Positions 11,892 to 30,786 of a stretch of DNA of 32,000 bases are shown here, piece by piece. A program made the position numbers and the translations under genes. The stretch covers positions 60,001 to 92,000 of the forward strand of contig JBAZYG010000002.1 in the NCBI GenBank assembly GCA_041659445.1. Direction: 5' to 3'. Every line of letters begins with the position of its first letter. The first letter of the stretch is position 1. The notes under the pieces are model-generated. The model was not told the DNA's origin. It saw only the letters and a program-made list of their open reading frames with translations, and searched no databases. Origin of the DNA: Candidatus Saccharimonadota bacterium (GTDB lineage: Archaea > Nanobdellota > Nanobdellia > Pacearchaeales > GW2011-AR1).

Positions 11892-11892
11892 A

Positions 11893-13493: not shown

Positions 13494-13494
13494 T

Positions 13495-13905: not shown

Positions 13906-13906
13906 T

Positions 13907-14305
13907 TTAATTAAATTTAGAAAGTTTTTCAACTTCTATATATTTTGGTTTAATTTCTTTTTTCATTCCAAAGAATTTTTTACCTTCAAATTCTTTTGGA
14001 ATATTATCATAGCATCTTAATTTTTTCCAAGCAATTCTTCCTCTTCCTTCTCTATAATCTGGCAACATTCCTCTTATTGTTCTTTTAACAATTTTATAAT
14101 TTAATCTAGAGTGTTTTGGTCCTTTTTGGCTTGAACCAATTCTTGATCTTTTTTGTAAAAATTCTTCTTGAATATTTTTTTTATTTCCAGTAATAATTAT
14201 TTTGCTACAATTTAATATAATTATATCTTCTCCTTTTAGCAATTCTTTAGCTGTGAAACTTGCTAATCTTCCCATTGCAATATCTTTTCCGTCAATAATT
14301 TTCAT
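13907..14305 (-). CDS. rpl13: 50S ribosomal protein L13 (uL13)
   Basis: 132 aa; IIDGKDIAMGRLASFTAKELLKG...IRGMLP...GR pattern, in conserved position between L18e and S9. Confidence 0.9.
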   Translation of the reverse strand: MKIIDGKDIAMGRLASFTAKELLKGEDIIILNCSKIIITGNKKNIQEEFLQKRSRIGSSQKGPKHSRLNYKIVKRTIRGMLPDYREGRGRIAWKKLRCYDNIPKEFEGKKFFGMKKEIKPKYIEVEKLSKFN

Positions 14306-14673
14306 TTTAAAATTTTAACTCCTTTTGCATCTTTATTTTCTTTAATTTCATCTTTTAATAATTTTAATTCGCAATTAGCTTTTAACAACTTTTCCTTTGC
14401 TTTGTCTGAAAAATTTAAAGCACAAATTCGGATTTTTTTAGTTATTTCTCCGACAGATAAAACCTTTCCTGGAATTGCAATTATTTCACCTGGTTTTGAA
14501 TTTTTATCAATGTAATCTAAATTAATTTCAGATTTTTTTCTTGTTGGTCCAGAAAGAATAGAAGCAATTTCAATCCATTTTGAATTTTTTTTAGCTAAAA
14601 TTATTGTTTCAACTAATTCTGGATTTTTCTTTTTAGACAATTGTTTTTGAATTTGTGTTTTTGATTTTTGCAT
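14302..14673 (-). CDS. rpl18e: 50S ribosomal protein L18e (eL18)
   Basis: 123 aa; NPELVETI..LAKKNS.W..IA..LSGPTRKK..INL..I...PGE...IPGKVL..G pattern, with a 4-nt overlap onto L13. Confidence 0.85.
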   Translation of the reverse strand: MQKSKTQIQKQLSKKKNPELVETIILAKKNSKWIEIASILSGPTRKKSEINLDYIDKNSKPGEIIAIPGKVLSVGEITKKIRICALNFSDKAKEKLLKANCELKLLKDEIKENKDAKGVKILK

Positions 14674-14799: not shown

Positions 14800-14883
14800 T
14801 GTGGATGTTAGGATTCGAACCTAAGTAGGCACTAAGCCAACAGATTTTGAGTCTGTCCCGTTTGACCACTCCGGCACATCCAC
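14800..14883 (-). tRNA. tRNA-Leu (anticodon CAA), class II with long variable arm
   Basis: Minus strand GTGGATG-TG-CCGGAGTGGTCAAACGGG-ACAGA-CTCAAAA-TCTGT-TGGCTTAGTGCCTAC-TTAGG-TTCGAAT-CCTAA-CATCCAC-A. All stems pair and the 7-nt loop carries CAA. Confidence 0.92.
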
Positions 14884-15012
14884 TTCTTTAATTAGAGAAT
14901 TTTTATGTTATATAAAAATTGTGGTTTACACTTTCTTAAGCATTTTTATAATAAATCTTTAAAATTCGTTTGAAATACAAAGCTTTATAAATAAATTTAA
15001 TTTATTTAATTC

Positions 15013-15510
15013 ATGGAAAATAAAGGGTTTTTCAATAAAGAAATAGGGAATTTCACTTTTAAATCTCCAGAAATACCCAAAATAAGTGAAATACCTGAAA
15101 TTGCCCAAAATTCCATAAAAGACCCCCTTTTTTACGATTTAGGTAAAGAAAGAATAGAATCTCTTAAAAAAGCAATTTCAGAAATAAAAATTTTAATTAA
15201 AGAAAGAGAAAAGTTAAGTAAAGACACTTTTAACGAAGGTGAAAAACTTAAAACAGAAATAAATAATTTTATTCTTGAAAACGAAAATGCAAACATTGCA
15301 TTAAATTCTGTTTCTACAAATGAATTACTTAGAGAAAAAAACGAATTAAGGTCTAAAAAAATTACAATTTCTGAATCTCAATTAAAAGAAAAAATTGATT
15401 GCTGGAAAGACGTTGCAGTGCTTAAAAAAGAATTAAGAGAACTTGAAATAGAACTTTCAGAAAAAGAAAATAGGATAATTGCATTAAATAAAATTCTCGA
15501 ATCTAATTAA
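15013..15510 (+). CDS. coiled-coil protein, partner of the downstream ATPase
   Basis: 165 aa. The C-terminal two thirds are heptad-rich (ESLKKAISEIKILIKEREKL...LRELEIELSEKENRIIALNKILE). It ends 5 nt before the ATPase gene. Confidence 0.65.
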   Translation: MENKGFFNKEIGNFTFKSPEIPKISEIPEIAQNSIKDPLFYDLGKERIESLKKAISEIKILIKEREKLSKDTFNEGEKLKTEINNFILENENANIALNSVSTNELLREKNELRSKKITISESQLKEKIDCWKDVAVLKKELRELEIELSEKENRIIALNKILESN

Positions 15511-15515
15511 TAAAA

Positions 15516-17534
15516 ATGAAAAGACTTCTTAGTATAGAAGAGTTAAGCACAAAATTAAAACCTTTATTCGGAGAAAAAATTGATCAATTATATTTTAAAT
15601 ATTTAACTTCAAATTCTAACGAAGAAAAAATAGAAATTTTGCAATTATTGACGGCATTATATCAAAAAAATCTTTCAAATTTACTCGATACAAAAATTTT
15701 GTTAGAACCGCCTCCAAAAGAATTAGTTACAGGAGAATACACTCTTGGAAATGTAGTTTATAATGAAAAAGAACTATATCCCTTTAATTTAAGAGAGCAA
15801 GATTGGTCAAGACACATTTGTGTTACAGGTATGTCTGGTAGTGGAAAAACAAATTTAGCATTGAATATTCTTTCAGATTTTATAAAAAAATCAAAGCCAT
15901 TCTTAGTTTTTGATTGGAAAAAAAGTTTTCGACCGTTGGTAAATAAAGATCCTTCATTAATGATTTTTACAGTCGGAAACGAATCTGTAAATAATTTTTT
16001 CAAATTAAACATAAACCGACCACCAAAAGATGTTTCACCAAAAGAATGGATAAATGTTTTGTGTGATCTATTAACAGAAAGTTTTGCAGTTTCATTCGGA
16101 GTTCACAAAGTTTTATTAGAAACATTAGATGAAATTTTTGAAAAATGGGGAGTTTATTCTGGTTTTAATCATTATCCAAATTGGGAGCATGTTAAAAAAA
16201 TGCTTGAAATAAAAGCAAGAGAGGCAAAAAAAAGAGAATCTGCATGGTATGAAAGTGCTTTAAGAATTGCATCTGTTTTAACTTTTGGAAGTTTTGGAAA
16301 AGTTATAAACTACGACGGAAAAAAAAGTCTTTCAGTTGAAGATTTGTTTGATAAAAGAGTTATTCTTGAATTAAATTCTTTGGGAAATATTGAGAAAAAA
16401 TTCTTTTGTGAATATCTTTTAACTTATATTTACAAATTAAAAAAAGCAAATCAATTCAAAGATGAATTAAACTTTAATTATGCAATTTTAGTTGATGAAG
16501 CACACAATATTTTCTTGAAAAATAAAACAAATTTCTTATCTGAATCTGTTACAGACATGGTTTACAGAGAAATGAGGGAATATGGAATAAGTTTAATTTG
16601 TTTAGACCAGCACATTTCTAAAATAAGTGATACTGTTAAGGGAAATTCTGCTTGTCATATAGCATTTCAACAACAACTTCCTGAGGACATTTATGATATT
16701 AGTTCTTTAATGCAAATGTTTGACAGAAAAGAAATTTTTTCAAAAATTCCTGTTGGATATTCTATTGTGAAACTTGCTGAAAGATATAATTCCTCTTTTT
16801 TAATTAAAGTTCCGTTATTTGATTTTTCTGGTGCAGAAGTAGGTGATGAAAAAATAAAATCAAGAATGGATTTTAAATTACTTGAAAATGAAATTGAAGA
16901 ATCAGATAAAGAATTTAAAAAAGAAATAACTTTTCCTTCAATAAAAAATGCAATAAAACCCGGACTAACCTTGAAGAAATCAAAAAAAAGAATTATCTTA
17001 GATAAGGAAGATTTAGAAGTTCCTTTAGAAGTTCAAGATTTTAAGAGAAAAATTGAAAATATTAAAGAGGAATATGCTGGTTTAACTCCTGTTCAAAAAG
17101 AATTATTTTTATTTATTCAATCAAAATTAGATTCAGGACGTGAATTAAAAGATATTGAAAATTTGCTTGAGCAAGGGCTTTCAGAAAAACTTTATAGTTT
17201 TTCAGATGTATTAACTGCAATTAATTATGCAATGGAGCAAAGATTAAAACTTCCTTCAAAATCTTTAACTTTCCAAAATAAAAATAATTTAGAACTTGTT
17301 TCAAATCAATTAAAACATTCTTCTGAAAATTTACCTGACGATGAGAAAAAGTTTGTTGAATTTTTAAGAAAAAATCCAAACAATGAATTAAATACAACTT
17401 CAATATATTCTTCAATGGGTTTTTCAACAAGAAAAGGAAATGTTATTAAAAAAAGGTTAATTGAAAAAAATCTTATAAAAGTTCAAGAACAAAGGACAAC
17501 AAAAGGCTGGCAAAAATTCATAAGATTAGCTTAG
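15516..17534 (+). CDS. HerA/FtsK-superfamily P-loop ATPase (DUF87-like) fused to a C-terminal winged-helix domain
   Basis: 672 aa with Walker A ICVTGMSGSGKTNLALNIL, Walker B YAILVDEAHNIF, then LICLDQH. The C-terminus FVEFLRKNPNNELNTTSIYSSMGFSTRKGNVIKKRLIEKNLIKVQE is wHTH-like. Confidence 0.8.
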   Translation: MKRLLSIEELSTKLKPLFGEKIDQLYFKYLTSNSNEEKIEILQLLTALYQKNLSNLLDTKILLEPPPKELVTGEYTLGNVVYNEKELYPFNLREQDWSRHICVTGMSGSGKTNLALNILSDFIKKSKPFLVFDWKKSFRPLVNKDPSLMIFTVGNESVNNFFKLNINRPPKDVSPKEWINVLCDLLTESFAVSFGVHKVLLETLDEIFEKWGVYSGFNHYPNWEHVKKMLEIKAREAKKRESAWYESALRIASVLTFGSFGKVINYDGKKSLSVEDLFDKRVILELNSLGNIEKKFFCEYLLTYIYKLKKANQFKDELNFNYAILVDEAHNIFLKNKTNFLSESVTDMVYREMREYGISLICLDQHISKISDTVKGNSACHIAFQQQLPEDIYDISSLMQMFDRKEIFSKIPVGYSIVKLAERYNSSFLIKVPLFDFSGAEVGDEKIKSRMDFKLLENEIEESDKEFKKEITFPSIKNAIKPGLTLKKSKKRIILDKEDLEVPLEVQDFKRKIENIKEEYAGLTPVQKELFLFIQSKLDSGRELKDIENLLEQGLSEKLYSFSDVLTAINYAMEQRLKLPSKSLTFQNKNNLELVSNQLKHSSENLPDDEKKFVEFLRKNPNNELNTTSIYSSMGFSTRKGNVIKKRLIEKNLIKVQEQRTTKGWQKFIRLA

Positions 17535-17788
17535 CTTATTTTTGTTTATAGATTATGTTACTTTTATGCAATAGTTACAAATAGAAACATTTATAAATTG
17601 ATTATTCCCTATAAAATAGAAAAAATCATATTCAAAAAACTAAACAAAAAAAACATATTTCAAAAATTACAAAAGAAACAAAAAACCGAGAATAAAACAC
17701 AGAATAAATAAGATAAATAAAATTAAATTTTATCTTGCATTTATTCAAAAATTTTATTCAAAGTTAATAAATTTCTTAAGTAAAAAAA

Positions 17789-17995
17789 TGAAATACCTTT
17801 TTCAAAATCGTTTTAGGTTTTGAAAAACAAGTGAAAAACCGCAAAAGGCTTTTCATGAGAATTATTCTTCATAGAAATATCAACTAGAACTTAAGTGAAA
17901 TACCTCAATTTCTAAGATATTTCATCAAATAAATTTCAAAAAAAATTCAAAAAATAATATGAAATACCCTAATTCAATTAAAAAAAGGTATTTCA
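17789..17995. repeat. iteron-like TGAAAWACC repeats in a 500-bp noncoding region
   Basis: TGAAATACC at 17789-17797, 17896-17904 and 17960-17968. Inverted GGTATTTCA at 17987-17995. Variant GTGAAAAACC at 17831-17840. Confidence 0.8.
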
Positions 17996-18036
17996 CACAA
18001 AATAATTTTTAATATTAACAATTTAAAACTTTAATC

Positions 18037-18234
18037 ATGGAAACAGCAACTTTTTTTCTTTTAATCGGAGCGATAGTTTTCATTTTTTTAGGAGCAATTT
18101 TACTTGTCGCTTCTTCAAAAAAAGAAACCTACCATTTTCCCTGGCTGTCTGTAGCATGCCTAATCGTGGCTTTTGCATTTTGTTTAGCCGCCCTCATCGT
18201 GCAAAACTCGGCCGGCGTTCATCCAGCGAACTAA
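18037..18234 (+). CDS. small two-TM membrane protein
   Basis: 65 aa with two hydrophobic helices (FFLLIGAIVFIFLGAILLVA; SVACLIVAFAFCLAALIV). Confidence 0.6.
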   Translation: METATFFLLIGAIVFIFLGAILLVASSKKETYHFPWLSVACLIVAFAFCLAALIVQNSAGVHPAN

Positions 18235-18265
18235 CTTGCAGGAATTTTAACATCTTTTTAAAACA

Positions 18266-18421
18266 ATGGAACAAATAACTTTAATCATACTCGGAGCAGG
18301 ACTTTCCTGTTTAGGAGTATTAAATTTATTTGATTACAAACATAGAGTAAACAGATCTTCCATTCTTGGAATGGGATGGGGTTTAGCTATGTTTATTTTA
18401 GGGATTTGTATCCTTAAATAA
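18266..18421 (+). CDS. small two-TM membrane protein (51 aa)
   Basis: Hand-translated MEQITLIILGAGLSCLGVLNLFDYKHRVNRSSILGMGWGLAMFILGICILK. It has the same TTTAAAACA-ATGGAA start context as other island genes and is below the track cutoff. Confidence 0.45.
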   Translation: MEQITLIILGAGLSCLGVLNLFDYKHRVNRSSILGMGWGLAMFILGICILK

Positions 18422-18673
18422 TCAAATAGAAATCTGCTAATTTTGGATTAGCCGAGTTGATGCATATCTTGGGAACAGAAGCATCAAATTCTTTTTTATC
18501 TTTTCTTGCCTGCACTTCGTCGATGGATAAGAAGTTCGATTCTTCTTGCAGGCACAATTCAGTGTTAAAAAATTCAAAAACAATTTCGACAAAGCGGAAG
18601 GCGGTTTTGTCAAATTAATTAAAAACAAACCCTTAAAAAAAAGTGCCATAAGGAGGCGCTAGCCGAATGTATC

Positions 18674-19300
18674 ATGAAAAATTTAAATGGAAAAAGTTTT
18701 GATGAACCTGAGGAAGAAAGACTGGTAAATCCCAAAGTTTATCAGGCAAAACCCGAACGGGTTTTTACATATCCCGAAGGGACTTTTGGGAGGTTGTGTG
18801 AAGAACAACACTGCAATCCTGATATTCTAATCTCTTCAGAGACAAAAATATCTCTATTTTCAAAAGTAGGTAATCCGGGGTATCGAATGTATACCTACAA
18901 AATTGAAAACAATGAAACAGACGCGTTGAGCGTCTACGAACCATGGGCGAGAATTGAGCTCAAAAAAGATTTTTTCCTTGAAAGGAAAAATCATGCCAAG
19001 GAATGTGGCCGGATTGCAAAAGAGCTTGGACTTCCGTTTGAATTAATTCTGGCTGTCGGCATTGAGCCAGAAAAACGCCAGGCTCTTCTCCAGTTGAAAG
19101 AAAAAGCCGAATGGTTCAGGGAACTGATCCACGAGCTGAAGGAATGCGGAATTAATAAGAGGAAAATGTCTATTCTCGATCTCATCGGGAGAGAGACATA
19201 CGACTCTTTGGATGTCGAAGGTATGGGGCAAAAAAATTCCTCGACAATTGCCCAATTTCTCACAAGGGGAATAACCATCGAGGGTTATTCTAAAAAATAA
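18674..19300 (+). CDS. hypothetical soluble protein
   Basis: 208 aa with island-type composition and no signal peptide; no motif recognised. Confidence 0.65.
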   Translation: MKNLNGKSFDEPEEERLVNPKVYQAKPERVFTYPEGTFGRLCEEQHCNPDILISSETKISLFSKVGNPGYRMYTYKIENNETDALSVYEPWARIELKKDFFLERKNHAKECGRIAKELGLPFELILAVGIEPEKRQALLQLKEKAEWFRELIHELKECGINKRKMSILDLIGRETYDSLDVEGMGQKNSSTIAQFLTRGITIEGYSKK

Positions 19301-19387
19301 TAATTAACTCGGCAGAAATAAGGCACTGCAATGAGACAAAATATTAACTATTAATTGGATAGGGACATGCTATCCATTTTATTTTAA

Positions 19388-19459
19388 TTCATTATAGCTC
19401 AGTTGGTAGAGCATCTGATTTTATTCAGAAGGTCATAGGTTCGAATCCTATTAATGGAA
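19388..19459 (+). tRNA. tRNA-like gene with bacterial-type D-arm and an aberrant 6-nt anticodon loop (Lys-UUU-like, or pseudo-tRNA)
   Basis: TTCATTA-TA-GCTC-AGTTGGTA-GAGC-A-TCTGA-TTTTAT-TCAGA-AGGTC-ATAGG-TTCGAAT-CCTAT-TAATGGA-A. All four stems pair, but the total is 72 nt because the anticodon loop is one nt short. Confidence 0.6.
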
Positions 19460-19460
19460 C

Positions 19461-19910
19461 AATGTTCTCTTTTGAACATTTTAGCTTCATCCCTTGAAGC
19501 TTGCTCATACATGAGCATTTCGTTTCTCAATTTCTTTGAGAGACAAACATTTTTCTTTTTTTAATCTGATTATCATGTTTTTTTAATCAGGTTTCATTCG
19601 CTGAAATTTCCTTCAGCAAACATTTTCCAAAAACTCTTTAGATTTCAGAGCCAAAACAAAATCAATTTGTTATTTTATTTATTTTCAGTTATTATTTATT
19701 TTTAATTATTTTTCAAATTAATTACTTTATTAGTATTTAGTTAAGTTCTTTTTATTTCAATTATTTTCTTATCATTATTTTATTTTTCTTTTCGTCATTT
19801 CGTTCTGAAGTGACAAACATTTTTCTTAGTTTTCTTTTTAGTTGCTCTTTTTCATTAATTTATTTTGAGCAACTTTCTTCGGCTAATTCCAGCCAAACAT
19901 TTTCCCTTTT
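19461..19910 (+). repeat. array of short hairpins, four to five followed by a conserved AAACATTTT(T)C tail
   Basis: Stems TCTCAA/TTGAGA (tail at 19545), GCTGAA/TTCAGC (tail at 19618), GTCATTTC/GAAGTGAC (tail at 19814) and GGCT/AGCC (tail at 19895), plus AATGTTC/GAACATT at 19461-19480. More hairpins at 19483-19501, 19502-19517, 19566-19590 and 19842-19873. Confidence 0.8.
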
Positions 19911-19966
19911 AATTTTTCTTCTGAATTTTTTTTAAACAAATATTAACAATTTAATTTCAAAACGTC

Positions 19967-20806
19967 ATGAAAAATTTAATTTCAAAAAATTGTTCATCGA
20001 TTCTGCCGTTCTTTCTGATTGCATTAATTGCTATCTTTGCATTTTGCTGTGCAAGACCAGTGAATGCTCAATCCACGTGGGATTGTGAAAGGTATTCAGA
20101 TCCCTTTTCATTCAACGTCAAACAAGTCAATAGTTCAATTTGGATTTTGAGTTATTCGATTAAGAATGATTCAATTATGACATTCAACCATGCCGGCGTG
20201 ACCTCTTTGGAGTTGACTTCAAATGATATAATTCTTGATTCCATTGAGGTTGTCTTTGTGTCAAAATTTCCTTTTTCAAGTACACAAATTCAAGCCAGTC
20301 TTAAAAAAGTTTATTTTGAAAATTCCCCACAATTAGTGAGGCAAGATGTTATTTTCAAAACTTTTCCGAAGTGGCCAGACAAGAAAATAGAAACGTTTTA
20401 CATTTACTGCAAAAAAGAAGGAAATAAAGTAACTTTCTATGATGAATTGGTATTTACTAAAACCAAATCAAATTGGCTTTGGCCGACAGCGTGCGTTATA
20501 GTTTTAATTGGGTTTTTTTTAATTGATGCAATTCAAAAGATTGGGGAAAGAAGAAATTATCTCAAAAATGAAAGCAGGGTAGAAAAGTTTTTTTCAGGAT
20601 TTTTTGCAAATACTTTTTGCAGTTTTGGAGAAGTAATTTTCATCCTTATATTAATTATATTATTTCTTTTTAAGATAATGTCCCTAGTAGAAGATTATTC
20701 TTTAGATAAAATTGGAATAATCTTTTATCTGTCTCTGATTTTCTTGTTCTTTCTCGGAAAATTTATTCTTTACAAAATCTTTTTCCGAGGAATTAAAAAA
20801 TACTAA
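19967..20806 (+). CDS. secreted-domain protein with a C-terminal multi-TM region
   Basis: 279 aa with a signal peptide ending VNA|Q, a soluble domain of about 140 aa, then 3-4 hydrophobic helices. Confidence 0.7.
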   Translation: MKNLISKNCSSILPFFLIALIAIFAFCCARPVNAQSTWDCERYSDPFSFNVKQVNSSIWILSYSIKNDSIMTFNHAGVTSLELTSNDIILDSIEVVFVSKFPFSSTQIQASLKKVYFENSPQLVRQDVIFKTFPKWPDKKIETFYIYCKKEGNKVTFYDELVFTKTKSNWLWPTACVIVLIGFFLIDAIQKIGERRNYLKNESRVEKFFSGFFANTFCSFGEVIFILILIILFLFKIMSLVEDYSLDKIGIIFYLSLIFLFFLGKFILYKIFFRGIKKY

Positions 20807-20813
20807 CTTCTTT

Positions 20814-20890
20814 TAAGGGCAAGTTAAAGAAAAGGATTTTCTACGTTTTGCCTTTTTAGATTAGAGATAGCAATCTAATACTTGCCCTTA
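20814..20890 (+). ncRNA. 77-nt Y-shaped structured element (11-bp closing stem plus two internal hairpins), function unknown; may act as a terminator
   Basis: TAAGGGCAAGT (20814-20824) pairs with ACTTGCCCTTA (20880-20890). Inner hairpins are AAAAGG..CCTTTT and TAGATT..AATCTA. It is followed by TTTTC. Confidence 0.4.
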
Positions 20891-20942
20891 TTTTCAAAAC
20901 TTTTTTTCAAAATTAATTCACCAATTCAAAATTTTAAACGCC

Positions 20943-21632
20943 ATGAAAAATTTAATTTCTTTACTTAAAAAAGTAGGAGTCTTTAAAGCAATCGGAATTT
21001 CTGCTTTAATTGGCTTTATTTTGGTAATAATTTTTCTTGTGCTATTACCAAAAAATTCAAATTCACAAGAAATTTCTTCTCCTGAAAAATGGAAGATTAA
21101 TTCCATAAATTTTGTCGCTGGCGAAACACCCTTGACAAAAGGAATTACTTTAAGCCCAGTTTTTTCAAAAGGTAAATCAACAATAATGATAGATCTAAAC
21201 CAGGAATTAGGAGAACTTATGTTTTTTTATTCTCCTAAAAAATGGTGTTCCATCGGGCCATCAGTAGGGTTCTTCAAGAATACATCTTGGGTAGGACCAA
21301 TTGCTTCATTAAACATTTTTAATGGACATGTTACAACTCTTAACTGGGTGGGATGGAGTTTTGGAAACCCTGAAGCAATCGGAGGAGGAACTACAAATTC
21401 CAACGTTGATTTCTTGTTTTCCTTTCACCAGGTTTCTGTCAATTACTTCGGTGTAGAAGGTTATTATATTCTGCAACACTACCAAAAAAATTTTCCCGGG
21501 CACATTGTAGGGGTTAAGTATACTTTTGCCCTCGGAGATAATTTTTCCCTTTTCGGAGGTTATGCTTATATGTTCCGAGCAGATAAATCCCTTTGGTCCG
21601 CAGGTTTCATTTTGTTATTTCCAGAAAAATAA
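20943..21632 (+). CDS. secreted beta-rich protein, putative beta-barrel (paralog of 21636-22316)
   Basis: 229 aa with a signal/anchor ending SNS|Q and alternating hydrophobic strands. It shares the YSPKKWxSIGPSVG block with the next gene (YSPKEWITFGLSAG). Confidence 0.65.
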   Translation: MKNLISLLKKVGVFKAIGISALIGFILVIIFLVLLPKNSNSQEISSPEKWKINSINFVAGETPLTKGITLSPVFSKGKSTIMIDLNQELGELMFFYSPKKWCSIGPSVGFFKNTSWVGPIASLNIFNGHVTTLNWVGWSFGNPEAIGGGTTNSNVDFLFSFHQVSVNYFGVEGYYILQHYQKNFPGHIVGVKYTFALGDNFSLFGGYAYMFRADKSLWSAGFILLFPEK

Positions 21633-21635
21633 ACC

Positions 21636-22316
21636 ATGAAAGCAAATTTCAAATTAAAAGTTCCCGGTCCATTCACAATTGTAGAATGGATTTTCATCAT
21701 GATGATTGTATTGGCAATCGGAACTTGTTCCAGAACCAATGCTCAAACTTCTCAAAATTTCTTCAAGATAAATGTTCATGTTCAAGTTGTTTCAGACGAG
21801 CAATCTGAAACAAGTAAAAAGTTCAGAACATTTTACCAAGAGGAATTTTATTTTAATCATAAATTTTCTTCGAATTTAGCTTTCACAAGTTTTGCAACAG
21901 TTAGAAATGATCGGGGTGAAATTTATTCTGGATTAGAGTACTCACCAAAAGAATGGATAACTTTTGGTTTGAGTGCTGGTCTAGATGTTGCAAAAGAAGC
22001 TGGTTCATCGTCAGCAACTTTGAGAACTGCAACATCTGTTTCCCTCAAGCCAGTAGAACAATTTGAATTCAAAGGAATTTTTGAATATAGCTCTGAGGAT
22101 TACTGGTTTTTGATTGAGCCAAAATACAATGGAAAGAAATTTTCATTGAGTTTGATTGCCCGTCGATATCATGGTGTCGGGTTTTCATTTTATTGGCCGA
22201 TTGCCAAGGGTAATCTGACTTTATGGTACTATGCGGGATATCTTCAAGGAAAATTCCTCGGAGGTGATGATAACCCACGAGCCTCTTCAGCCTTAGGGTT
22301 GAAAGTTAATTTTTAA
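21636..22316 (+). CDS. outer-membrane-type beta-barrel-like protein
   Basis: 226 aa with a signal peptide ending TNA|Q and amphipathic beta-strand periodicity. The C-terminus is ALGLKVNF, with terminal Phe and alternating hydrophobics (bacterial OMP beta-signal). Confidence 0.65.
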   Translation: MKANFKLKVPGPFTIVEWIFIMMIVLAIGTCSRTNAQTSQNFFKINVHVQVVSDEQSETSKKFRTFYQEEFYFNHKFSSNLAFTSFATVRNDRGEIYSGLEYSPKEWITFGLSAGLDVAKEAGSSSATLRTATSVSLKPVEQFEFKGIFEYSSEDYWFLIEPKYNGKKFSLSLIARRYHGVGFSFYWPIAKGNLTLWYYAGYLQGKFLGGDDNPRASSALGLKVNF

Positions 22317-22347
22317 TTTACTTAATACTAATTTAATTTTTAAAACA

Positions 22348-22842
22348 ATGGAAAATTTTCTTGAAAACAAATCAGTTGCAAAAATCTGCTTGATTCTTGC
22401 AATTATCATCATGGTGATTCTGTCTCTCTCGCCAATAGATGCAAAGTCTCAAGTGATTGTTAATGACGCTGATTCAAGTGTTGTCCTTGACATTCAGAGC
22501 ACCTCTGGCGGTATTCTCATTTCCCGGATGACAGAAGCTCAACGTGACAGCATCTCAGAACCAGCGAATGGTTTGCTGATTTATCAAACAACCGTTCCAA
22601 TGGGTTTTTATTTTTGGGACGGAGTCCAGTGGAACAGGCTCGTAAGTGAAAATGCAGAAGGTATCATACAATATGGTGAGGCAGAATTTTCTGGAGAGCC
22701 TTCCCAGGAATTATTTGAAAGTGTTTTTGGTATCAGACAATTTCATTTTCATTTCACTCTGCTAAGCACAAATCAGAATAAAGTCTTCACTGGCGCCTAC
22801 ATTACTGGGCATGGGTTTTTCTATGAAAAACTCAAGCAATAA
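22348..22842 (+). CDS. secreted protein with an STSGGILISRMT..QRD.I..P..GLLIYQT....W motif
   Basis: 164 aa with a signal peptide ending AKS|Q. From memory, the motif resembles one common in Bacteroidota secreted hypothetical proteins; this was not verified. Confidence 0.6.
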   Translation: MENFLENKSVAKICLILAIIIMVILSLSPIDAKSQVIVNDADSSVVLDIQSTSGGILISRMTEAQRDSISEPANGLLIYQTTVPMGFYFWDGVQWNRLVSENAEGIIQYGEAEFSGEPSQELFESVFGIRQFHFHFTLLSTNQNKVFTGAYITGHGFFYEKLKQ

Positions 22843-22946
22843 CAACTACAACCCTTAATTGGGATTCTGCATTTCTAAATTTCTTTGGCATTATTAAAGA
22901 AATTAAATTCTCAAAATGTTTATTAATCATCAAATTTCAAAATGTC

Positions 22947-23093
22947 ATGGCAAAAAAGAATTTTGCAACCAGAATCATCTTAGAAAATGATGGAGTTTCT
23001 AAAGATGAAGAAATTCCTCTCAAAGCCAAAATGAAAAATATACATAAAACCTACCATCCACTAAAAGGGATGAAAGGAAAAAAAGCAGAATAA
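22947..23093 (+). CDS. small basic protein (48 aa)
   Basis: Hand-translated MAKKNFATRIILENDGVSKDEEIPLKAKMKNIHKTYHPLKGMKGKKAE. It is preceded by the island leader AAATTTCAAAATGTC-ATG and followed by a 10-bp-stem hairpin. Confidence 0.45.
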   Translation: MAKKNFATRIILENDGVSKDEEIPLKAKMKNIHKTYHPLKGMKGKKAE

Positions 23094-23236
23094 AACCCAT
23101 CAGCAACGCAAAAGGCAGGAACTTTTAATCTAAATTAACTAATGGTTTTTGATGAATCTCTATCTTCCCCTGCCTTTTTAATTTGAAAACAATTTATGTC
23201 AAAATATTAATTCAAAACTTTTAATTTCAAAACGTC

Positions 23237-23746
23237 ATGAAAACAAAAGAGAACAATTTTCTGTATTGGGGAGTTGTGATTGTTTTTTTAGTAACGATCA
23301 TATCCCTGGTCTTAATGTTTGTTTCTATAATTTCAAAAGCAAATAAAAAAGATTTAGAAACAAAATCTTCCAACACTTCAAACGTTGTTTTTGTGGAGAA
23401 TTCTGATTCTTCAATAATAATAAACGCAGAAGTTATCATCTCAGAATTCAACGGAATTTCTGATTCCGTTGATTACCAAACCAGCGAGGATTTTATAGAT
23501 ATTTCCTTAGCAATAGAACAATATTATCCTTGCTCAGATACTACTCTCTGTGACAGCCTGAGACAAAATTTTATTGACGAGCTTAGAAAAATTTCAGATG
23601 TTAATGTCCTTGAAATTTTTCTCGAGACAATCAATAGGGTTTTCATCAACACAGACTTTTCAAAAACCGATGACATTAAATCATTAATTACTCAGAGAGT
23701 TAATGATTTATACGCCCTTGAATCATATCAAGAACTCAAAAAATAA
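23237..23746 (+). CDS. N-terminally anchored extracytoplasmic protein
   Basis: 169 aa with one TM (LYWGVVIVFLVTIISLVLMFVSII), and the leader TTAATTTCAAAACGTC-ATG, nearly identical to that of 19967. Confidence 0.65.
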   Translation: MKTKENNFLYWGVVIVFLVTIISLVLMFVSIISKANKKDLETKSSNTSNVVFVENSDSSIIINAEVIISEFNGISDSVDYQTSEDFIDISLAIEQYYPCSDTTLCDSLRQNFIDELRKISDVNVLEIFLETINRVFINTDFSKTDDIKSLITQRVNDLYALESYQELKK

Positions 23747-23785
23747 TTTTCAAAACTTTTTTCAAAACAATTTAAATTAAATGTC

Positions 23786-24178
23786 ATGGAAAAATTTGGT
23801 ATTTATTTAGTATGGATGCTGATACTTCTTGTATTTGCGTTCTTAAATCGCACCATCCTGTATTATGGAGCAATCTGTCCAGCCGTCAGTGGAAGACCTG
23901 TTGCTGACTTAAGACCTTGGAGAATATTCTCTTGGGTTTTCGGAGGAATTTCCTTTATTGTTTACAATTTTCTTTTGTTAGTTCCAATCGACAGCGAGTT
24001 TAAAGATTTCTTCAAACCAGTGTGCCTGATTTTTGCTGGAACCTGTGTTCTGGCATTAATTCTTTTTGCCCTGCTAAGTTCTGATGCAATTTTGATGACT
24101 ATCCGTCGGAGATTTAATCTCGTTGGAATTGCGTTAGGAATTGTCTTGTGCCTAACGCTTTCATTCTTCCTGTTATAA
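23786..24178 (+). CDS. four-TM integral membrane protein
   Basis: 130 aa with four hydrophobic segments. Confidence 0.65.
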   Translation: MEKFGIYLVWMLILLVFAFLNRTILYYGAICPAVSGRPVADLRPWRIFSWVFGGISFIVYNFLLLVPIDSEFKDFFKPVCLIFAGTCVLALILFALLSSDAILMTIRRRFNLVGIALGIVLCLTLSFFLL

Positions 24179-24184
24179 CATTCA

Positions 24185-24224
24185 TTGCATTATGTATCTC
24201 TTGAAGATTATAATGCATTTCTTT
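24185..24224 (+). terminator. hairpin plus T-run (intrinsic-terminator-like)
   Basis: TGCATTAT (24185-24192) pairs with ATAATGCA (24209-24216), followed by TTTCTTTG. Confidence 0.55.
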
Positions 24225-24300
24225 GATTTCAATTACTCAATTTAATTTGAGACAAAATATTTTTCACAAATTTCTATTTATTAATTCAAAAATTTTTACC

Positions 24301-25152
24301 ATGAAAAAAATCGTTTTTTTATTCGGAATTTTCTTCCTTTTTTTAGGAAGTATCTTTTCCCAAGACATCATCTATAAAAGAGATGGGTCCAGAATTCAAT
24401 CAGTGGTTTTGAAAATCACTGAGACGTCGATAGAATATCAATATTTCAATCAACCCGACGGGCCTGTGCGAGTACTCTCTCTAAAAGATGTGTATATGGT
24501 CAGGTACAACGACGGAACAGAAGAACAATTCACATCTGAAGTTCCTGAAGTTCAACCTGAACCTGAGGCTGTTTCCACCACATCTATTATGCCGACGACA
24601 ACAATCAGTCAACCTGTTTCAACAGAACCAATTCAGCCACCAGTTACAACCAAACAAAAATCATCTGGAAAATTCTCCCTCAATGCTGGAGGGTTTCTCC
24701 ATATGTATTACAACGAGGAAATGTCCTCGACATTTGGCACCATGCCTTTGTTCGGCTTGGGTCTTGGCGTGGACATGGATAATATATTTTTCACGCTGAG
24801 ATATAATACTGGCTCTGTGAAGTATGATGAGGATAACTGGACATTAAAGCATTCCCAGTTGGACTTGCTGTTCGATTTAAAGTGGTATAAATCACAGGGA
24901 AGCAAAGCCCAAGTATATTCTGGAATTGGGCTTTCTCTTAATACATTGAAAGATGAAGGTCCAGACAACGAGAAAGAAAAAGGAACAGGTGCAGGGGTTT
25001 TGCTCGAGCTTGGCTTTGATATCTTACTTGCAAATAATTTATATTTGTTTGTCACGGCAACATCTGTGATAGGGAATGTAAATATTTACGAAGAGAAAGT
25101 TAACATCAGCGGAGAACGACTCGGAGTCGGGCTCAAGGTTAACTTTGATTAA
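24301..25152 (+). CDS. outer-membrane-type beta-barrel protein with an N-terminal small domain and a Pro/Thr-rich linker
   Basis: Start taken at MKKIVFLFGIFFLFLGSIFS|QD. It has an N-domain IIYKRDGSRIQSVVLKITETSIEYQYFNQPDGPVRVLSLKDVYMVRYNDGTEEQF, a PEPEAVSTTSIMPTTT linker, about 8 amphipathic strands, and ends GVGLKVNFD. Confidence 0.7.
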   Translation: MKKIVFLFGIFFLFLGSIFSQDIIYKRDGSRIQSVVLKITETSIEYQYFNQPDGPVRVLSLKDVYMVRYNDGTEEQFTSEVPEVQPEPEAVSTTSIMPTTTISQPVSTEPIQPPVTTKQKSSGKFSLNAGGFLHMYYNEEMSSTFGTMPLFGLGLGVDMDNIFFTLRYNTGSVKYDEDNWTLKHSQLDLLFDLKWYKSQGSKAQVYSGIGLSLNTLKDEGPDNEKEKGTGAGVLLELGFDILLANNLYLFVTATSVIGNVNIYEEKVNISGERLGVGLKVNFD

Positions 25153-25269
25153 CTTTTAAATTTTCAAAAAATCCTTAATCGAAATTCTAAAATTAGTTTG
25201 AAGAAAAGAGCATAACTGTGAGTGTATGCTTTTAAATTTTCAAAATGTCTAATAACAAATTTTTTAACA

Positions 25270-26055
25270 ATGGAAACAAAAACAAAAAAAATCACATGGT
25301 GGGACGTAGCATTTGTCGCCATCGTGGTGACTTTGGTGGGGTTTGTACTTTGGGTTTGTCTCACACCGCCGCCCAACAAAATAACCGACGAGAGAGCCCA
25401 ACAAACCCAAGATTCACTCTCAAACCAGTATCGATTTGAGTGTAACTTAATTTCTTTCAACTCAGAACCAGTTCCGGCCTTTTTTGAATGGTTGGAATTG
25501 CAAGGAGAGGGATACACTCCAGTAGGTAATAATCCGGTTCTGGTACCCATACGTTCAGGACAGGAAATGATTTATTCGTATGAAGGTAAAATGTATAAAG
25601 GCATTTTACCAAACACAACCTACTTCATGTGGGAGCCAGCTTCAGGTATGGAATTCAAATGTCTCTCCAGAAATGGAGCAATTATATCCATAACTCCTTA
25701 TGAAACAGGTGAGCCAGTCCAGTATTTTATCCGTCGATACAATGAATTCTGGAGTTTCGAGGAATTAAAAATTCGTAATTATCGTTATTCATTGAACATC
25801 ACCGCAATTTATCCTTGGGGAGAAATTCTCATCGATAACTACGAAGATCTGTTGATGAATTCTTCTGTAAAAAGGTTTCGCTCCTGGGGACCTGCTTATG
25901 AAGTTCAGGTCGGGCAAGCTGAGTTAAATGGGTGGGAAGATTTTTTCCTCGTCAGTCAGGATGGGAAAGCATGGCTTACCCGCGAACAAGAGCAACGACG
26001 ACGTGAAAGTCAGTTCATACATAACGTCGGACCTGGAGGTTTTATACTTCCATAA
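25270..26055 (+). CDS. N-terminally anchored extracytoplasmic protein
   Basis: Start taken at METKTKKITWWDVAFVAIVVTLVGFVLWVCL (single TM); the remaining roughly 230 aa are soluble with no recognised motif. Confidence 0.65.
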   Translation: METKTKKITWWDVAFVAIVVTLVGFVLWVCLTPPPNKITDERAQQTQDSLSNQYRFECNLISFNSEPVPAFFEWLELQGEGYTPVGNNPVLVPIRSGQEMIYSYEGKMYKGILPNTTYFMWEPASGMEFKCLSRNGAIISITPYETGEPVQYFIRRYNEFWSFEELKIRNYRYSLNITAIYPWGEILIDNYEDLLMNSSVKRFRSWGPAYEVQVGQAELNGWEDFFLVSQDGKAWLTREQEQRRRESQFIHNVGPGGFILP

Positions 26056-26246
26056 TTCCCCCAATTATTAAACCCAAAATGTGAAGTTGACAAGAATGTG
26101 ACTTGATGTGCACATTTTTTCTTTTGAACAAATTATTAATTTAAAAAAGAAAGGAGGAAAAAATAATTAAGAGTGTTGGTATGAACATAACCTTATTTTT
26201 AAGGTGTATGTAAAATTATAATTATTCACCTAAATTTTAAATCATC

Positions 26247-26813
26247 ATGAAAAAGATTCTTTTTATTTTCTTTGGACTACTCTTTGCGAGTAGTCTTTTT
26301 GCAATCGAACCGACAGTACCTGCTACCAGCACCGGCGAGAATTCCCCGACGATTTTCACTGCTGAGCAGAAAGCTGAAGCCATCAACGCTTTCGTGACCA
26401 GTGGAAGCATGGAAATGGCTATTCCCGGATTGCCTGATGCACCGCCGCCGGTGAGGTATGAGAACATCTTAGGTTTTGAAGTAACCGCATGTAACTCCAT
26501 GCACATTGCGTATGGGGTGACCGGGGGTAATGAAGAACCTGCTTTTTGGGTTTACCCATGGGGAGGAACCGTTAGAGTAGAAAAAACAGTTTGGCCCCAA
26601 GCAGGACAGCAAGTTTGGGTAAAAGTATTATCCTGTTCAAGCCCACAGCAAGGATATTGCAATCTACATTTAGACCGAAGGGTTTGGTATCCAGATCAAG
26701 GTCCTATGGGCGAGCCCTTATTGTGCTTGTATGGATGGATATGGTGTTATACCGCGGGAAGTATCCTACCTCAAACAGGATACACCGAGGCCGGTTATTG
26801 TGTGACTGAATAG
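26247..26813 (+). CDS. secreted Cys/Trp-rich protein
   Basis: 188 aa with signal peptide MKKILFIFFGLLFASSLFA|IE. It is the G+C-richest gene in the window and its C-terminal half contains 7 Cys. Confidence 0.65.
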   Translation: MKKILFIFFGLLFASSLFAIEPTVPATSTGENSPTIFTAEQKAEAINAFVTSGSMEMAIPGLPDAPPPVRYENILGFEVTACNSMHIAYGVTGGNEEPAFWVYPWGGTVRVEKTVWPQAGQQVWVKVLSCSSPQQGYCNLHLDRRVWYPDQGPMGEPLLCLYGWIWCYTAGSILPQTGYTEAGYCVTE

Positions 26814-26828
26814 CCTATCCTGCTCTTC

Positions 26829-26870
26829 AAGGACTTTATTTCTCTCGAGGATTAAAGTCCTTTTCTTTTG
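26829..26870 (+). terminator. hairpin plus T-run (intrinsic-terminator-like)
   Basis: AAGGACTTTA (26829-26838) pairs with TAAAGTCCTT (26853-26862), followed by TTCTTTTG. Confidence 0.6.
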
Positions 26871-26900
26871 ATTTTAATTTCCTTTAAGGAATCAAAATAT

Positions 26901-27001
26901 AAGGCGTTGGTCAGAAGCAATTCCTGAAGTAATTGCACAAGTTGCGAAAAATCAAATTTTTGTGTGAGAATTCATCCAACCAAGGGAAAATCCAACGCCT
27001 T
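26901..27001 (+). ncRNA. about 100-nt element closed by a 10-bp stem (possible structured RNA), function unknown
   Basis: AAGGCGTTGG (26901-26910) pairs with CCAACGCCTT (26992-27001). It has an internal GCAATT..AATTGC hairpin and lies at the right edge of the G+C-rich island. Confidence 0.3.
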
Positions 27002-27044
27002 CTTTTAATATAAGTCTTTTAACAACTAAAAAAGGGGGTTTATT

Positions 27045-27239
27045 ATGTTTTATCATGTGTGGGTATCTGTGTTTTTAATTGTATTCGGAGCATTAGTGTT
27101 ATCTAGACAGATATCTTTTCCAATTGAAAAACGTTCAACTTCAAGATTATTTTGGGGTTTTGCTTATTTTGGAATAGGCATAAGTCTTTTAACAACTATT
27201 GTTTTATTGAAATACATTAAAGATATTCCTTGGTTTTAA
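27045..27239 (+). CDS. small two-TM membrane protein
   Basis: 64 aa with two hydrophobic helices. It contains the second copy of a 19-bp direct repeat (27180-27198); the first copy is at 27010-27028, just upstream. Confidence 0.5.
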   Translation: MFYHVWVSVFLIVFGALVLSRQISFPIEKRSTSRLFWGFAYFGIGISLLTTIVLLKYIKDIPWF

Positions 27240-27346
27240 ACTAATTAAAAAAATGCTTATTTAATTTTTCAGAATTTTATTTAAGCATTTTTTTTGCAAA
27301 ACAGAACTGCTAAAATATAGCAGTAGTATTTAATTAAAAAAAAGAA

Positions 27347-28060
27347 CTATAATTTTTTTGAAACACTTTCTAAATCTTTTTTCAAGAATTCAAGAGCTTT
27401 TTTGAAAATTTCTTTAGGTTCTATTTGTCCAAATGATTCAACTTTAATTATTAATTCATCTCCTTCTTTTATTTCTGCTTTCTTTTTATTTTTTATAGCC
27501 AAGCCTTCACAAAAATCTGAGATTGGTTTTTCAGAATTATCTTCTATAATTATTTTATCACCTTTTTCTTTAATAGCATTTTCTGGAAAATTTTTTTTAA
27601 TTATGTCAGAAAATTCTTTATCAATAATAATCTCTCCAGAGTTTCTGTAAATTATAATTCCAGGTGAGAACTTTGCATGTTCAAATCCTCTTCCCATTCT
27701 AACATAAGCAGTAATATCAACTTCTTTTCCAGGATTTAATATTGTAATTGGAATTTTATCATAAACTACTTCAATATTTCCTTTGAAATCCCCAGAATAA
27801 ACAATCCCTTCTTTTTTTACTTTTAATTTTAATTTTTCTTCTGAATTTTCTTTAAATCCTTTTGAAAATTTTAAAGGTATTAATCCAATTCTATGTGCAA
27901 CTGTTTCGTCGTACAATGCAGTATCATTTTTTGCAATTTCAACTTCATCAATTGCTAAAATTGGAATCAAATTAACACTTCTTCTTATTGCATTTGCCAA
28001 AGTTTCATTTATTTTTGCCTTAAAAACAAATTTGTCTTTTGTGTTTTTTATTGTTTCCAT
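27347..28060 (-). CDS. rpoD: DNA-directed RNA polymerase subunit D (Rpo3)
   Basis: 237 aa; ANAIRRSVNLIPILAIDEVEI..NDTALYDETVAHRIGLIPL, in the conserved position after S11. Confidence 0.88.
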   Translation of the reverse strand: METIKNTKDKFVFKAKINETLANAIRRSVNLIPILAIDEVEIAKNDTALYDETVAHRIGLIPLKFSKGFKENSEEKLKLKVKKEGIVYSGDFKGNIEVVYDKIPITILNPGKEVDITAYVRMGRGFEHAKFSPGIIIYRNSGEIIIDKEFSDIIKKNFPENAIKEKGDKIIIEDNSEKPISDFCEGLAIKNKKKAEIKEGDELIIKVESFGQIEPKEIFKKALEFLKKDLESVSKKL

Positions 28061-28097
28061 TTTAATTTTTGTTTTATATTGTTTTTAAATTTAATTA

Positions 28098-28565: not shown

Positions 28566-28566
28566 T

Positions 28567-29022: not shown

Positions 29023-29084
29023 GCAAAATACCTCCGAACTTTTTTGTGTGAAATGGAAATTTTATATTTGCTTTTCATTTTTAT

Positions 29085-29573: not shown

Positions 29574-29574
29574 T

Positions 29575-30108: not shown

Positions 30109-30173
30109 TTAAATTTTCTCCTGAATTTCTCTCTGAATTAATTGTTTTTTTATTTTGATTGTCATTATTTTTT

Positions 30174-30464: not shown

Positions 30465-30465
30465 T

Positions 30466-30729: not shown

Positions 30730-30786
30730 GAATAACGAAGAAAAATTCCCTTTAAAAAGCTTATCTTTTTGTTGCAGAATTATTAA

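Follow-up and report, generated by a model that had tools for sequence, protein, structure and literature searches.

A probable hypervariable island for envelope-type proteins in the split rpoD/L18e gene cluster of a Pacearchaeota-like DPANN clade

In a 32,000-nucleotide stretch of contig JBAZYG010000002.1 (forward-strand positions 60,001 to 92,000; hereafter the window), the archaeal cluster of ribosomal-protein and RNA polymerase genes, unlike its canonical form, is broken between rpoD and tRNA-Leu by 12.5 kb of genes on the opposite strand. This gap, at 14884-27346, contains about 16 plus-strand open reading frames (ORFs) in two layers: a native first 2.6 kb, encoding a coiled-coil protein and an ATPase, and a variable block further on. 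The most probable reading, held with reasonable but far from complete confidence, is that the locus is a lineage-conserved hypervariable island in an ancient rpoD/L18e break of a Pacearchaeota-like DPANN clade, serving as a replacement-type flexible island for envelope or surface proteins. The source metagenome-assembled genome (MAG) is listed at NCBI as Candidatus Pacearchaeota, with window proteins including MFA5953708.1 and MFA5953715.1; the window overall is archaeal sequence of 25% GC, and a search based on RpoD finds its relatives among Nanoarchaeota and Pacearchaeota MAGs.

To the left of the gap, on the minus strand, lie the genes for S9 (13495-13932; Pfam Ribosomal_S9, 6e-31), L13 (13907-14305; Ribosomal_L13, 6e-15) and L18e (14302-14673; L27A/L18e, 3e-5), together with a native tRNA-Leu(CAA) that keeps with L18e (14800-14883; ARAGORN, and Rfam at 60.6 bits). 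To the right, also on the minus strand, RpoD (27347-28060) begins the other half of the cluster, RpoD-S11-S4-S13 (27347-29573), with DUF655, RpoF and L21e as further minus-strand genes after S13, all assigned with Pfam. All genes of the order S13-S4-S11-RpoD-(tRNA-Leu)-L18e-L13-S9 are kept, in canonical relative order and orientation; what has been lost is their contiguity. RpoN has been relocated to the plus strand (31094-31291, Pfam), as it has in relatives. An earlier, sequence-only reading of this DNA had proposed these gene identities and coordinates, with rpoN elsewhere on the opposite strand and the universal cluster interrupted, and Pfam, ARAGORN and Rfam bear it out on each of these points.

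The contexts of ATPase orthologues of 57-70% identity (loci L007-L017) were retrieved, and a metagenome scan with the ATPase alignment added 49 loci. L007-L017 have S9-L13-L18e-tRNA-Leu(CAA) on one strand and the coiled-coil gene, the ATPase gene and small co-oriented ORFs on the other, with RpoD-S11-S4-S13-DUF655-RpoF-L21e ending the block and RpoN beyond. S9-L13-L18e stand directly upstream of the coiled-coil/ATPase pair in 13 loci, whose ATPases are 57-71% identical; RpoD closes the block after 4.9-9.8 kb in seven of these, and the block exceeds 10 kb in three others. The left-hand genes occupy the same position in L010, L015-L017, L020-L022, L025, L029 and L051, the tRNA-Leu(CAA) adjoining L18e in relatives too, while RpoD-S11-S4-S13 have the same order in L003-L007, L010, L012 and L016, with RpoD, S11 and S4 also found in L020 and RpoD and S11 in L029. 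Wherever both ends lie on the contig, that is, in seven loci, the slot between ATPase and rpoD is filled. At least 13 more distant loci retain the pair without its ribosomal neighbours.

The contiguous arrangement was found in L006, a distant Nanoarchaeota MAG with an RpoD 45% identical to that of the window, which has RpoD-tRNA-Leu(CAA)-L18e-L13-S9 and, after S9, the XerA neighbours that the window also has; a tRNA-Leu between rpoD and L18e in some lineages had been anticipated in the sequence-only reading. The order in L006 makes the split a real departure from the ancestral one, and since the interrupted order is common to 13 loci, the break is ancient and native. The simplest history would be that the pair, with whatever came after it, became placed between rpoD and tRNA-Leu in an ancestor of the clade and was then inherited. 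The earlier reading had favoured disruption by foreign DNA, adding that the same interrupted order with the same genes throughout the lineage would instead indicate an ancient native arrangement. The order proves to be lineage-wide and ancient and the genes behind the ATPase are not conserved; of a recent foreign insertion there survives a compositionally foreign portion of ~9 kb (GC content at third codon positions, GC3, of 0.33 vs 0.14-0.16), whereas the break itself is old and its first two genes are native.

The edges of the break show some variation of their own. In L023 (474-558) and L029 (8993-9077) ARAGORN places the tRNA-Leu(CAA) on the strand opposite to L18e, pointing to a local inversion that affected the tRNA gene at the border of the break. 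In L017 an ORF for a LAGLIDADG homing endonuclease (8137-8892) separates L18e from the coiled-coil gene, so that this break point has received another kind of insertion as well. Contig JAUSIC010000023.1, which carries L005, ends at 10701, just beyond the rpoD stop codon, and this fits an assembly break at the boundary of a variable or low-coverage island.

The first gap gene (15013-15510, plus strand) encodes a 165-aa coiled-coil protein without a Pfam domain, which is the partner of the ATPase and precedes it in every locus with enough sequence. It is 53-63% identical in L007, L010 and L012 by tblastn, its alignment is conserved across loci, and its GC3 of 0.14 is host-like; the ATPase gene and tm64, the small gene at the far end of the gap, also group with the host. 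The ATPase gene (15516-17534, plus strand) encodes 672 aa, matches Pfam DUF87 at 3e-9 and also Zot, and has more than 800 full-length DPANN homologues of 54-70% identity, those with names being assigned to Pacearchaeota, Nanoarchaeota/Nanobdellota, Diapherotrites or simply "archaeon"; the Walker motifs are invariant in 36 homologues. The claim that the gap genes are all accessory thus fails for this pair, whose members are conserved, native and of host composition: they are core genes of the lineage, and the ATPase anchors the locus.

The kinship of the ATPase is clearer at the level of fold than of family. Its best named NCBIfam relative is CedD, the Ced DNA-translocating ATPase, with E 1.7e-16 and only 60 bits vs a cutoff of 600, and HerA_Thermprot gives 31 bits against a cutoff of 800, so that the curated family cutoffs are all missed widely; PADLOC returns only weak HerA/mad8 matches and PHROGs only a weak terminase-like match at the P-loop region. 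A PDB profile search has Sulfolobus HerA as its sole match (E 2e-4). The AlphaFold2 (AF2) model, with a mean confidence (pLDDT) of 74.6, is matched by Foldseek to DndH-C, HerA (4d2i), SIR2-HerA complexes, VirB4 and TrwB at E ~4e-11 to 3e-6, which together with the profile search points to the hexameric HerA/FtsK-type ATPase fold, and at 587-671 it shows helices and a beta-hairpin typical of winged-helix domains. On these matches, the 672-aa protein is assigned to the FtsK/HerA superfamily, with a predicted C-terminal winged-helix-like domain. It has no transmembrane (TM) segment, and no NurA, Mre11/Rad50, SIR2, DUF4297, CedA or VirB partner was found at the locus. With known HerA/FtsK systems (HerA-NurA, Ced, VirB4/TrwB, SIR2-HerA and DUF4297-HerA) it shares the core fold, the Walker motifs and weak family matches; it differs from them in its partner, a coiled-coil protein of 150-165 aa, and in the C-terminal winged-helix-like extension and downstream array of TGAAATACC boxes, which are specific to the ATPase family of this locus.

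That array lies in the spacer following the ATPase gene, which in every locus is non-coding, AT-rich and 340-650 bp long. In the window (17535-18036, plus strand) the boxes are at 17790-17797, 17897-17904 and 17961-17968 on the plus strand and at 17987-17994 on the minus strand; the spacer octamer is GAAATACC, with the extended consensus TGAAATACCtt. Box density across all 7 loci first compared is 6.7 per kb in the spacers vs 0.15 per kb elsewhere (~46-fold), and the window as a whole has 10 copies vs 0.95 expected. Altogether 61 instances were counted in 17 spacers, mostly as direct repeats; the first block gene follows them at a distance of 30-440 nt. Helical phasing is seen in several arrays: L010 has four copies at exact 31-nt intervals, and the intervals in L016, L020 and L021 are 10, 21 and 32 nt. 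This geometry fits a putative operator- or iteron-like protein-binding array. The boundary on the rpoD side has no TGAAATACC boxes in five loci, the inverted pairs being confined to the spacer on the ATPase side, and has terminator-like hairpins (a hairpin with a T-run) in all five loci compared; in the window such calls, facing rpoD, lie between tm64 and 27346.

Two other roles for the array were considered. The inverted TGAAATACC pairs, along with a nearby XerA gene, had prompted the idea of dif sites used by an integrative mobile element exploiting Xer recombination (IMEX); dif-like sites were not found at both ends of the insert, the inverted pairs lying only in the ATPase-side spacer, and the idea was dropped for want of such sites at the rpoD-side boundary. 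A role as replication origin is unlikely because Orc1/Cdc6 and the lowest-GC intergenic region lie ~10-12 kb away. Some lineages also have tandem GAAATACC pairs within genes, either at the 5' end of the one for the coiled-coil protein or in the 3' part of the one for the ATPase (window 15070-15095; L007 601-626; L017 9288-9305; L012 2319-2335; L015 11495-11511). Those within the coiled-coil gene encode a P-E-I-P repeat and are confined to some lineages; the constraint could be on DNA or on protein, so these copies were set aside and not counted as evidence for a DNA motif. Elsewhere in the window, the genes at 7136-7846 (plus strand) and 8037-8651 (minus strand) encode proteins whose N-terminal part is a coiled coil and whose C-terminal part resembles a winged helix, the first of them containing three further GAAATACC boxes, at 7250, 7379 and 7457; the two proteins are candidates for binding the repeat array or being co-regulated with it.

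Beyond the spacer, little is conserved but the type of gene. Of 99 block genes in ten loci of the clade, 98 point the same way as the ATPase gene, and 73% encode an N-terminal hydrophobic leader, a feature of 25% of the control genes upstream (Fisher 9e-11). When 92 block proteins of nine loci were compared with Pfam, ~90% had no domain, and no integrase, transposase, replication or virion protein was among them; the domains present are TonB_C (two), CBM96 (two), PKD (two), Fib_succ_major, Ank, NMN_transporter and OMP_b-brl, with a few weak single matches, and are by these assignments mostly of envelope or adhesion types. Blocks contain 8-16 small secreted proteins, among which those with 2, 4 and 6-7 TM segments recur, and small 2-TM proteins end the L007 and L012 blocks as well as that of the window. 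Homologues in another locus exist for only 5% of block genes, whereas 67-76% of the window's flank genes are shared (in loci with both flanks). Loci with ATPases 75-78% identical have only 2-3 of 11-14 block genes in common, six families recur in shuffled order among the blocks of L003, L010, L012, L015, L016 and L017, and none of 13 genes in the window block is shared with the nine other loci. The nearest relatives with a different block have 70% ATPase identity, while contigs of the window's own strain are identical to it. Among the 9 loci whose flanks gave a usable sample, 8 have a higher GC3 in the block than in the flanks. In loci where the pair is not part of the ribosomal cluster, the genes downstream of it are still enriched in leaders (33% vs 14%, p = 5e-4), and in distant lineages one third of the downstream genes are on the other strand. 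Related genomes thus fill the same slot (seven loci with both ends, 13 with the left scaffold) with non-homologous genes of the same predicted class, exposed structures.

In the window, GC is ~25% up to 17.5 kb, the spacer at 17535-18036 is very AT-rich, values of 30-45% prevail from 18.04 to ~27.0 kb, and host level is regained before rpoD; a non-coding stretch of 24% GC, 19461-19966, interrupts the GC-rich segment. GC3 averages 0.33 +/- 0.06 in 13 block genes vs 0.14 +/- 0.04 in 22 host genes (p = 2e-6), so that the difference between block and host is not just one of amino-acid composition. The foreign part of the window comprises only ~18037-27030. Segment 1 of the block (18037-19300, plus strand, delimited from ORFs and TM segments; GC3 0.23-0.39) encodes two small 2-TM proteins (18037-18234 and 18266-18421) and p208 (18674-19300), the only clearly cytoplasmic block protein, for which a single-sequence AF2 model was unusable (pLDDT 36); none of its proteins belongs to a Pfam, PHROG, PADLOC or NCBIfam family. 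Segment 2 (19967-26813, plus strand; GC3 0.24-0.42) has ten co-oriented genes, p279, p229, p226, p164, p48, p169, p130 (4 TM), an outer-membrane protein (OMP) beta-barrel, p261 and p188, whose hydrophobic leaders and Pfam matches mark them as signal-peptide or membrane proteins. Last, just beyond the compositional transition, comes tm64 (27045-27239, plus strand), a small 2-TM protein with a GC3 of 0.18 and host-like codon usage.

Judging from the homologues of two of its proteins, the affinity of the cargo is bacterial, of the Fibrobacteres-Chlorobi-Bacteroidetes (FCB) type. The OMP protein (24301-25152, plus strand) matches Pfam OMP_b-brl at 7e-7 to 9e-7 and has five weak partial homologues among 5.8e9 proteins, the best of them beside bioA/bioD. 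The p164 protein matches PTL_trimer (PF26696 on record) and has one homologue in the same collection, 36% identical, in a bacterial genome beside genes for Por_Secre_tail, of the type IX secretion system (T9SS), OmpH and POTRA. As neither has close homologues there, a recent bacterial donor cannot be named, and that origin was dropped. The window's block genes each have a TATA-like box (ATATTAAC) ~26 nt before the ATG, like host genes, and a TATA-like 15-mer, ATATTAACAATTTAA, has exact copies at 18012-18026 and 19940-19954; most lack a Shine-Dalgarno sequence and have in common a private start context, ...TTTCAAAAYGTC-ATG. With archaeal-type TATA boxes and this start context, they look as if they are expressed in archaeal style, rather than being passive bacterial operons.

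Between the two segments lies a tRNA-like gene (19388-19460, plus strand), overlooked in the sequence-only reading, which scores 64.6 bits with the Rfam tRNA model, has a 6-nt anticodon loop, TTTTAT, and 36% GC, and is called "Lys|Stop (tt)" by ARAGORN. Homologous tRNA-like genes in the blocks of L003 (15601-15678 and 16614-16698, minus strand) and L004 (5799-5872, minus strand) share with it a U1-A72/G73 acceptor stem and the T-arm and differ in their anticodon arms; those of L003 have enlarged non-canonical loops of roughly 11-15 nt, and that of L004 has CAT as a canonical anticodon. A normal tRNA-Asn(GTT) on the DPANN contig L027 (5032-5106) has the same acceptor signature, which weakens the case for bacterial import of the gene; its D-arm and anticodon stem also resemble those of bacterial and phage tRNAs. 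The adjoining 506 nt (19461-19966, plus strand) fold into at least nine local hairpins, with a minimum free energy of -90.2 vs -52.2 +/- 4 kcal/mol (z = -9.5), and contain four exact AAACATTTTYC tails, at 19545, 19618, 19815 and 19895, two of which were called as terminator-like hairpins. Rfam found nothing in the two non-coding stretches except the tRNA, and for this one a multi-terminator, a structured RNA and a set of recombination sites are all conceivable. At the right end of the GC-rich segment, a 19-nt repeat, ATAAGTCTTTTAACAACTA, has two exact copies (27010-27028 and 27180-27198, plus strand), 170 bp apart, the first at the right-hand transition to host-level GC and the second inside tm64; 0 of 100 shuffles gave two copies, and there is no third copy in the window. 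It may be the scar of a recombination that brought in the current cargo. Neither the tRNA-like gene nor the hairpin array nor the repeat yields a mobility mechanism.

The main block proteins were searched against Pfam, PHROGs, PADLOC and NCBIfam, each database covering a subset of them, and the earlier statement that the gap has no integrase or transposase stands in all four. PHROGs and PADLOC, which covered most block proteins, gave no match for the block. No relatives emerged when IMG/VR was scanned three times, with the ATPase, p208 and p277 as queries, and blastn against phage and plasmid collections gave only generic tRNA similarity. No att-type direct repeats bracketing 18.0-27.0 kb were found; both copies of ATAAGTCTTTTAACAACTA are at the right end of the segment rather than flanking it as a whole, and the gap abuts the 5' rather than the 3' end of tRNA-Leu. 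A viral origin was dropped on the IMG/VR and PHROGs results, and a defence system on those from PADLOC, which were limited to the weak HerA/mad8 matches of the ATPase. An integron was likewise dropped: XerA lies 3 kb off beyond S9-L13-L18e and the block genes have their own TATA-like boxes; nor was a recurring attC-like element seen between block genes.

The locus, then, has the following organization: a scaffold of L18e-tRNA-Leu (minus strand), the coiled-coil and ATPase genes (plus strand), the boxed spacer, the variable block, terminators and rpoD (minus strand). The block takes up 5-10 kb with genes for secreted and membrane proteins, drawn from a gene pool that is partly shared and shuffled and has envelope domains of diderm bacteria in it. 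The block would encode an exposed surface or envelope repertoire, serving attachment to partner cells or surfaces or the evasion of viruses, with its diversity maintained by selection. Its genes would be exchanged as in replacement-type islands, through horizontal transfer and through recombination that the conserved flanks would guide. The TGAAATACC array would be a protein-binding operator or iteron controlling the block promoter, and the winged-helix tail of the ATPase is a candidate for the protein that binds it.

By analogy, the closest counterpart of the window locus would be a replacement-type flexible genomic island such as hypervariable region 2 (HVR2) of SAR11. HVR2, rich in unknown membrane proteins, lies between the 16S-tRNA-tRNA-23S cassette and the 5S rRNA gene (PMC3448164; first described in PMC2217521). 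Both are hypervariable islands in a fixed slot that splits a universal informational cluster in a streamlined lineage, with the position kept across deeply divergent members, a content of unknown membrane and hypothetical proteins, and one divergent member in which the cluster is unsplit (HIMB59 there, L006 here). They differ in that HVR2 is bacterial, splits an rRNA operon rather than a ribosomal-protein/rpoD cluster, and has ~50 genes, mainly for glycosyltransferases, vs the 8-16 small secreted proteins found here; neither a conserved ATPase anchor nor a repeat array has been described for it, and the comparison of the Pacearchaeota locus is one above strain level only. For replacement flexible genomic islands in general, the mechanism of exchange is homologous recombination between conserved flanks (Lopez-Perez, Martin-Cuadrado and Rodriguez-Valera 2014, PMC4033161). 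The present locus resembles them in having different genes of the same broad class (exposed structures) at the same position, conserved bounding genes that could guide homologous recombination, and no mobility genes inside. It is unlike them in that their definition refers to strains of a single species and includes peaks of substitution at the island boundaries, whereas the comparison here is at genus or family level only, and in that they mostly encode glycosylation pathways, rather than arrays of small orphan secreted proteins.

Several points weigh against reading the locus as such an island. No closely related strains (> 90% flank identity) with different blocks were found, so that replacement at strain level and a recombination signature at the boundaries are proposed, by analogy, rather than observed at that level, and heavy turnover of non-essential genes at 57-78% ATPase identity is not exceptional in itself. 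The surface location comes from a crude prediction of hydrophobic leaders, the roles of the window's block proteins are likewise predicted, and block expression is predicted from promoter-like sequence; the TGAAATACC boxes are putative binding sites and their binder is only a candidate. Bacterial-type outer-membrane domains have no obvious role in a monoderm archaeon, and the 19-nt repeat, the tRNA-like gene and the hairpin array are left unexplained.

An alternative that seems unlikely is that ATPase and block form one machine, in which a HerA/VirB4-type translocase with its coiled-coil partner would load at TGAAATACC and either transfer DNA or protein through membrane components of the block, in the manner of Ced or type IV systems, or promote the capture or export of adjacent DNA; the latter variant would itself explain a hypervariable neighbouring block. 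The fold matches to HerA, VirB4, TrwB and DndH-C speak for it, as do the nearest named family, a DNA-translocating one, the winged-helix-like domain, the phased direct repeats directly downstream of the ATPase gene in every lineage checked, the constant co-orientation of block and pair, the recurring small proteins with 2, 4 or 6-7 TM segments, and the persistence of leader enrichment downstream of the pair even outside the ribosomal cluster. However, such a machine would require a block protein common to all loci, and there is none; the CedD score is a tenth of its cutoff (60 vs 600 bits), the ATPase lacks a TM segment, a spacer of 340-650 bp with its own promoter separates it from the block, and co-orientation breaks down in distant lineages, where a third of the downstream genes are reversed. 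Bolder, and on the evidence very improbable, is a combination in which the coiled-coil protein, the ATPase with its winged-helix tail and the phased TGAAATACC array would be an archaeal, integrase-free module for DNA translocation or gene capture, loading at the array, feeding or exchanging the adjacent block and so stocking the symbiont with proteins of bacterial-envelope type (TonB_C, OMP barrel, T9SS-associated) for docking onto diderm bacterial hosts.

Recent integration of a mobile element or provirus of an undescribed DPANN-specific type, which hit the intergenic site by chance, is judged quite unlikely as the origin of the GC-rich 9 kb (18037 to ~27030). The sharp compositional step and foreign codon usage would be accounted for, along with the embedded aberrant tRNA-like gene, of a sort that many phages and elements carry, the homogeneous start-codon context and repeated promoter strings, which suggest a single source, the exact 19-nt direct repeat at the right edge and the near-orphan nature of the proteins, DPANN viruses and plasmids being poorly sampled. 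But integrase, transposase, replication, capsid, portal and terminase genes were not found among the block proteins, no direct repeats flank the segment as a whole, and IMG/VR has no relatives and the phage and plasmid collections match the tRNA only. Equivalent blocks occupy exactly the same slot in all relatives, with families shared in shuffled order, which is not the behaviour of a discrete element. An assembly artefact, with a bacterial fragment mis-joined into an archaeal contig, might be suspected from a GC content 13 points above that of the host and from bacterial-type OMP barrel and PTL_trimer domains in an archaeal contig, and its likelihood is close to nil. The flanks on either side are archaeal and make up the conserved scaffold, N runs are absent from the window, and the segment itself contains host-type TATA boxes and AT-rich intergenic regions. 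An independently assembled contig of 68 kb from the European Nucleotide Archive (ENA) runs collinear with window 17347-32000, a span of 14,654 bp that takes in both junctions, and differs from it by 1 mismatch; positions 26927-29005, which include the rpoD-side junction, recur without any difference in a Logan contig from another run, SRR6484324; and the same architecture emerges in other lineages from megahit, SPAdes, JGI and Logan assemblies. The chimerism that the earlier reading had raised as a possibility is therefore excluded as far as the ENA and Logan contigs allow.

Some neighbouring features of the window also recur in relatives. Genes for Orc1/Cdc6 (4250-5458) and the small subunit of DNA polymerase D (2651-4237, minus strand) adjoin the window's lowest-GC intergenic region, 5459-5936, which makes a replication origin likely there and the island origin-proximal, at ~10-12 kb; in L016 a Cdc6 gene is likewise ~10 kb from the ATPase. 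At 11058-12330 (plus strand) a gene for a XerA tyrosine recombinase (11058-11891; 253 bits vs a cutoff of 220 for the XerA model), 3 kb from the gap, is followed by one for a 145-aa protein with only the "Recombinase" domain of serine recombinases. The same pair adjoins S9 in L006, L010, L015, L016, L020-L022, L025 and L029, and in L017 its second gene is replaced by one for a 372-aa protein with a methyltransferase domain and only a faint Recombinase match. An ORF for a DUF4389 membrane protein (13203-13592, minus strand) overlaps the 3' end of S9 by ~100 nt and is kept downstream of S9 in L015, L016, L020-L022 and L025.

DPANN archaea, whose genomes are tiny, are thought to live attached to other cells. 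Both the setting of this locus, in the ribosomal-protein/RNA polymerase cluster of a DPANN symbiont ~10 kb from the predicted origin, and its gene pool, with diderm-bacterial envelope domains in an archaeon, are unusual. Read as a hypervariable island, it offers a fixed, recognizable address, from the conserved ATPase to rpoD, for secreted and membrane proteins of fast turnover, some with domains that otherwise occur only in the envelopes of diderm bacteria, and its block gives a short list of candidate proteins for host interaction or virus evasion. It could also serve as a marker of strain-level diversity suited to the polymerase chain reaction and read recruitment, and the relationship between the conserved cis-element and the ATPase is open to biochemical testing. 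The reason for which DPANN hold bacterial proteins and the existence of bacterial hosts for some of them are stated open questions (PMC8204110), the second of which the diderm envelope domains bear upon; were the gene-capture and docking reading true, they would be direct genomic evidence for bacterial hosts of some Pacearchaeota. The split is of concern to annotators and to phylogenomic pipelines that assume the cluster to be contiguous, and it indicates that a flexible island can be stably accommodated even in the most conserved gene cluster of archaea.

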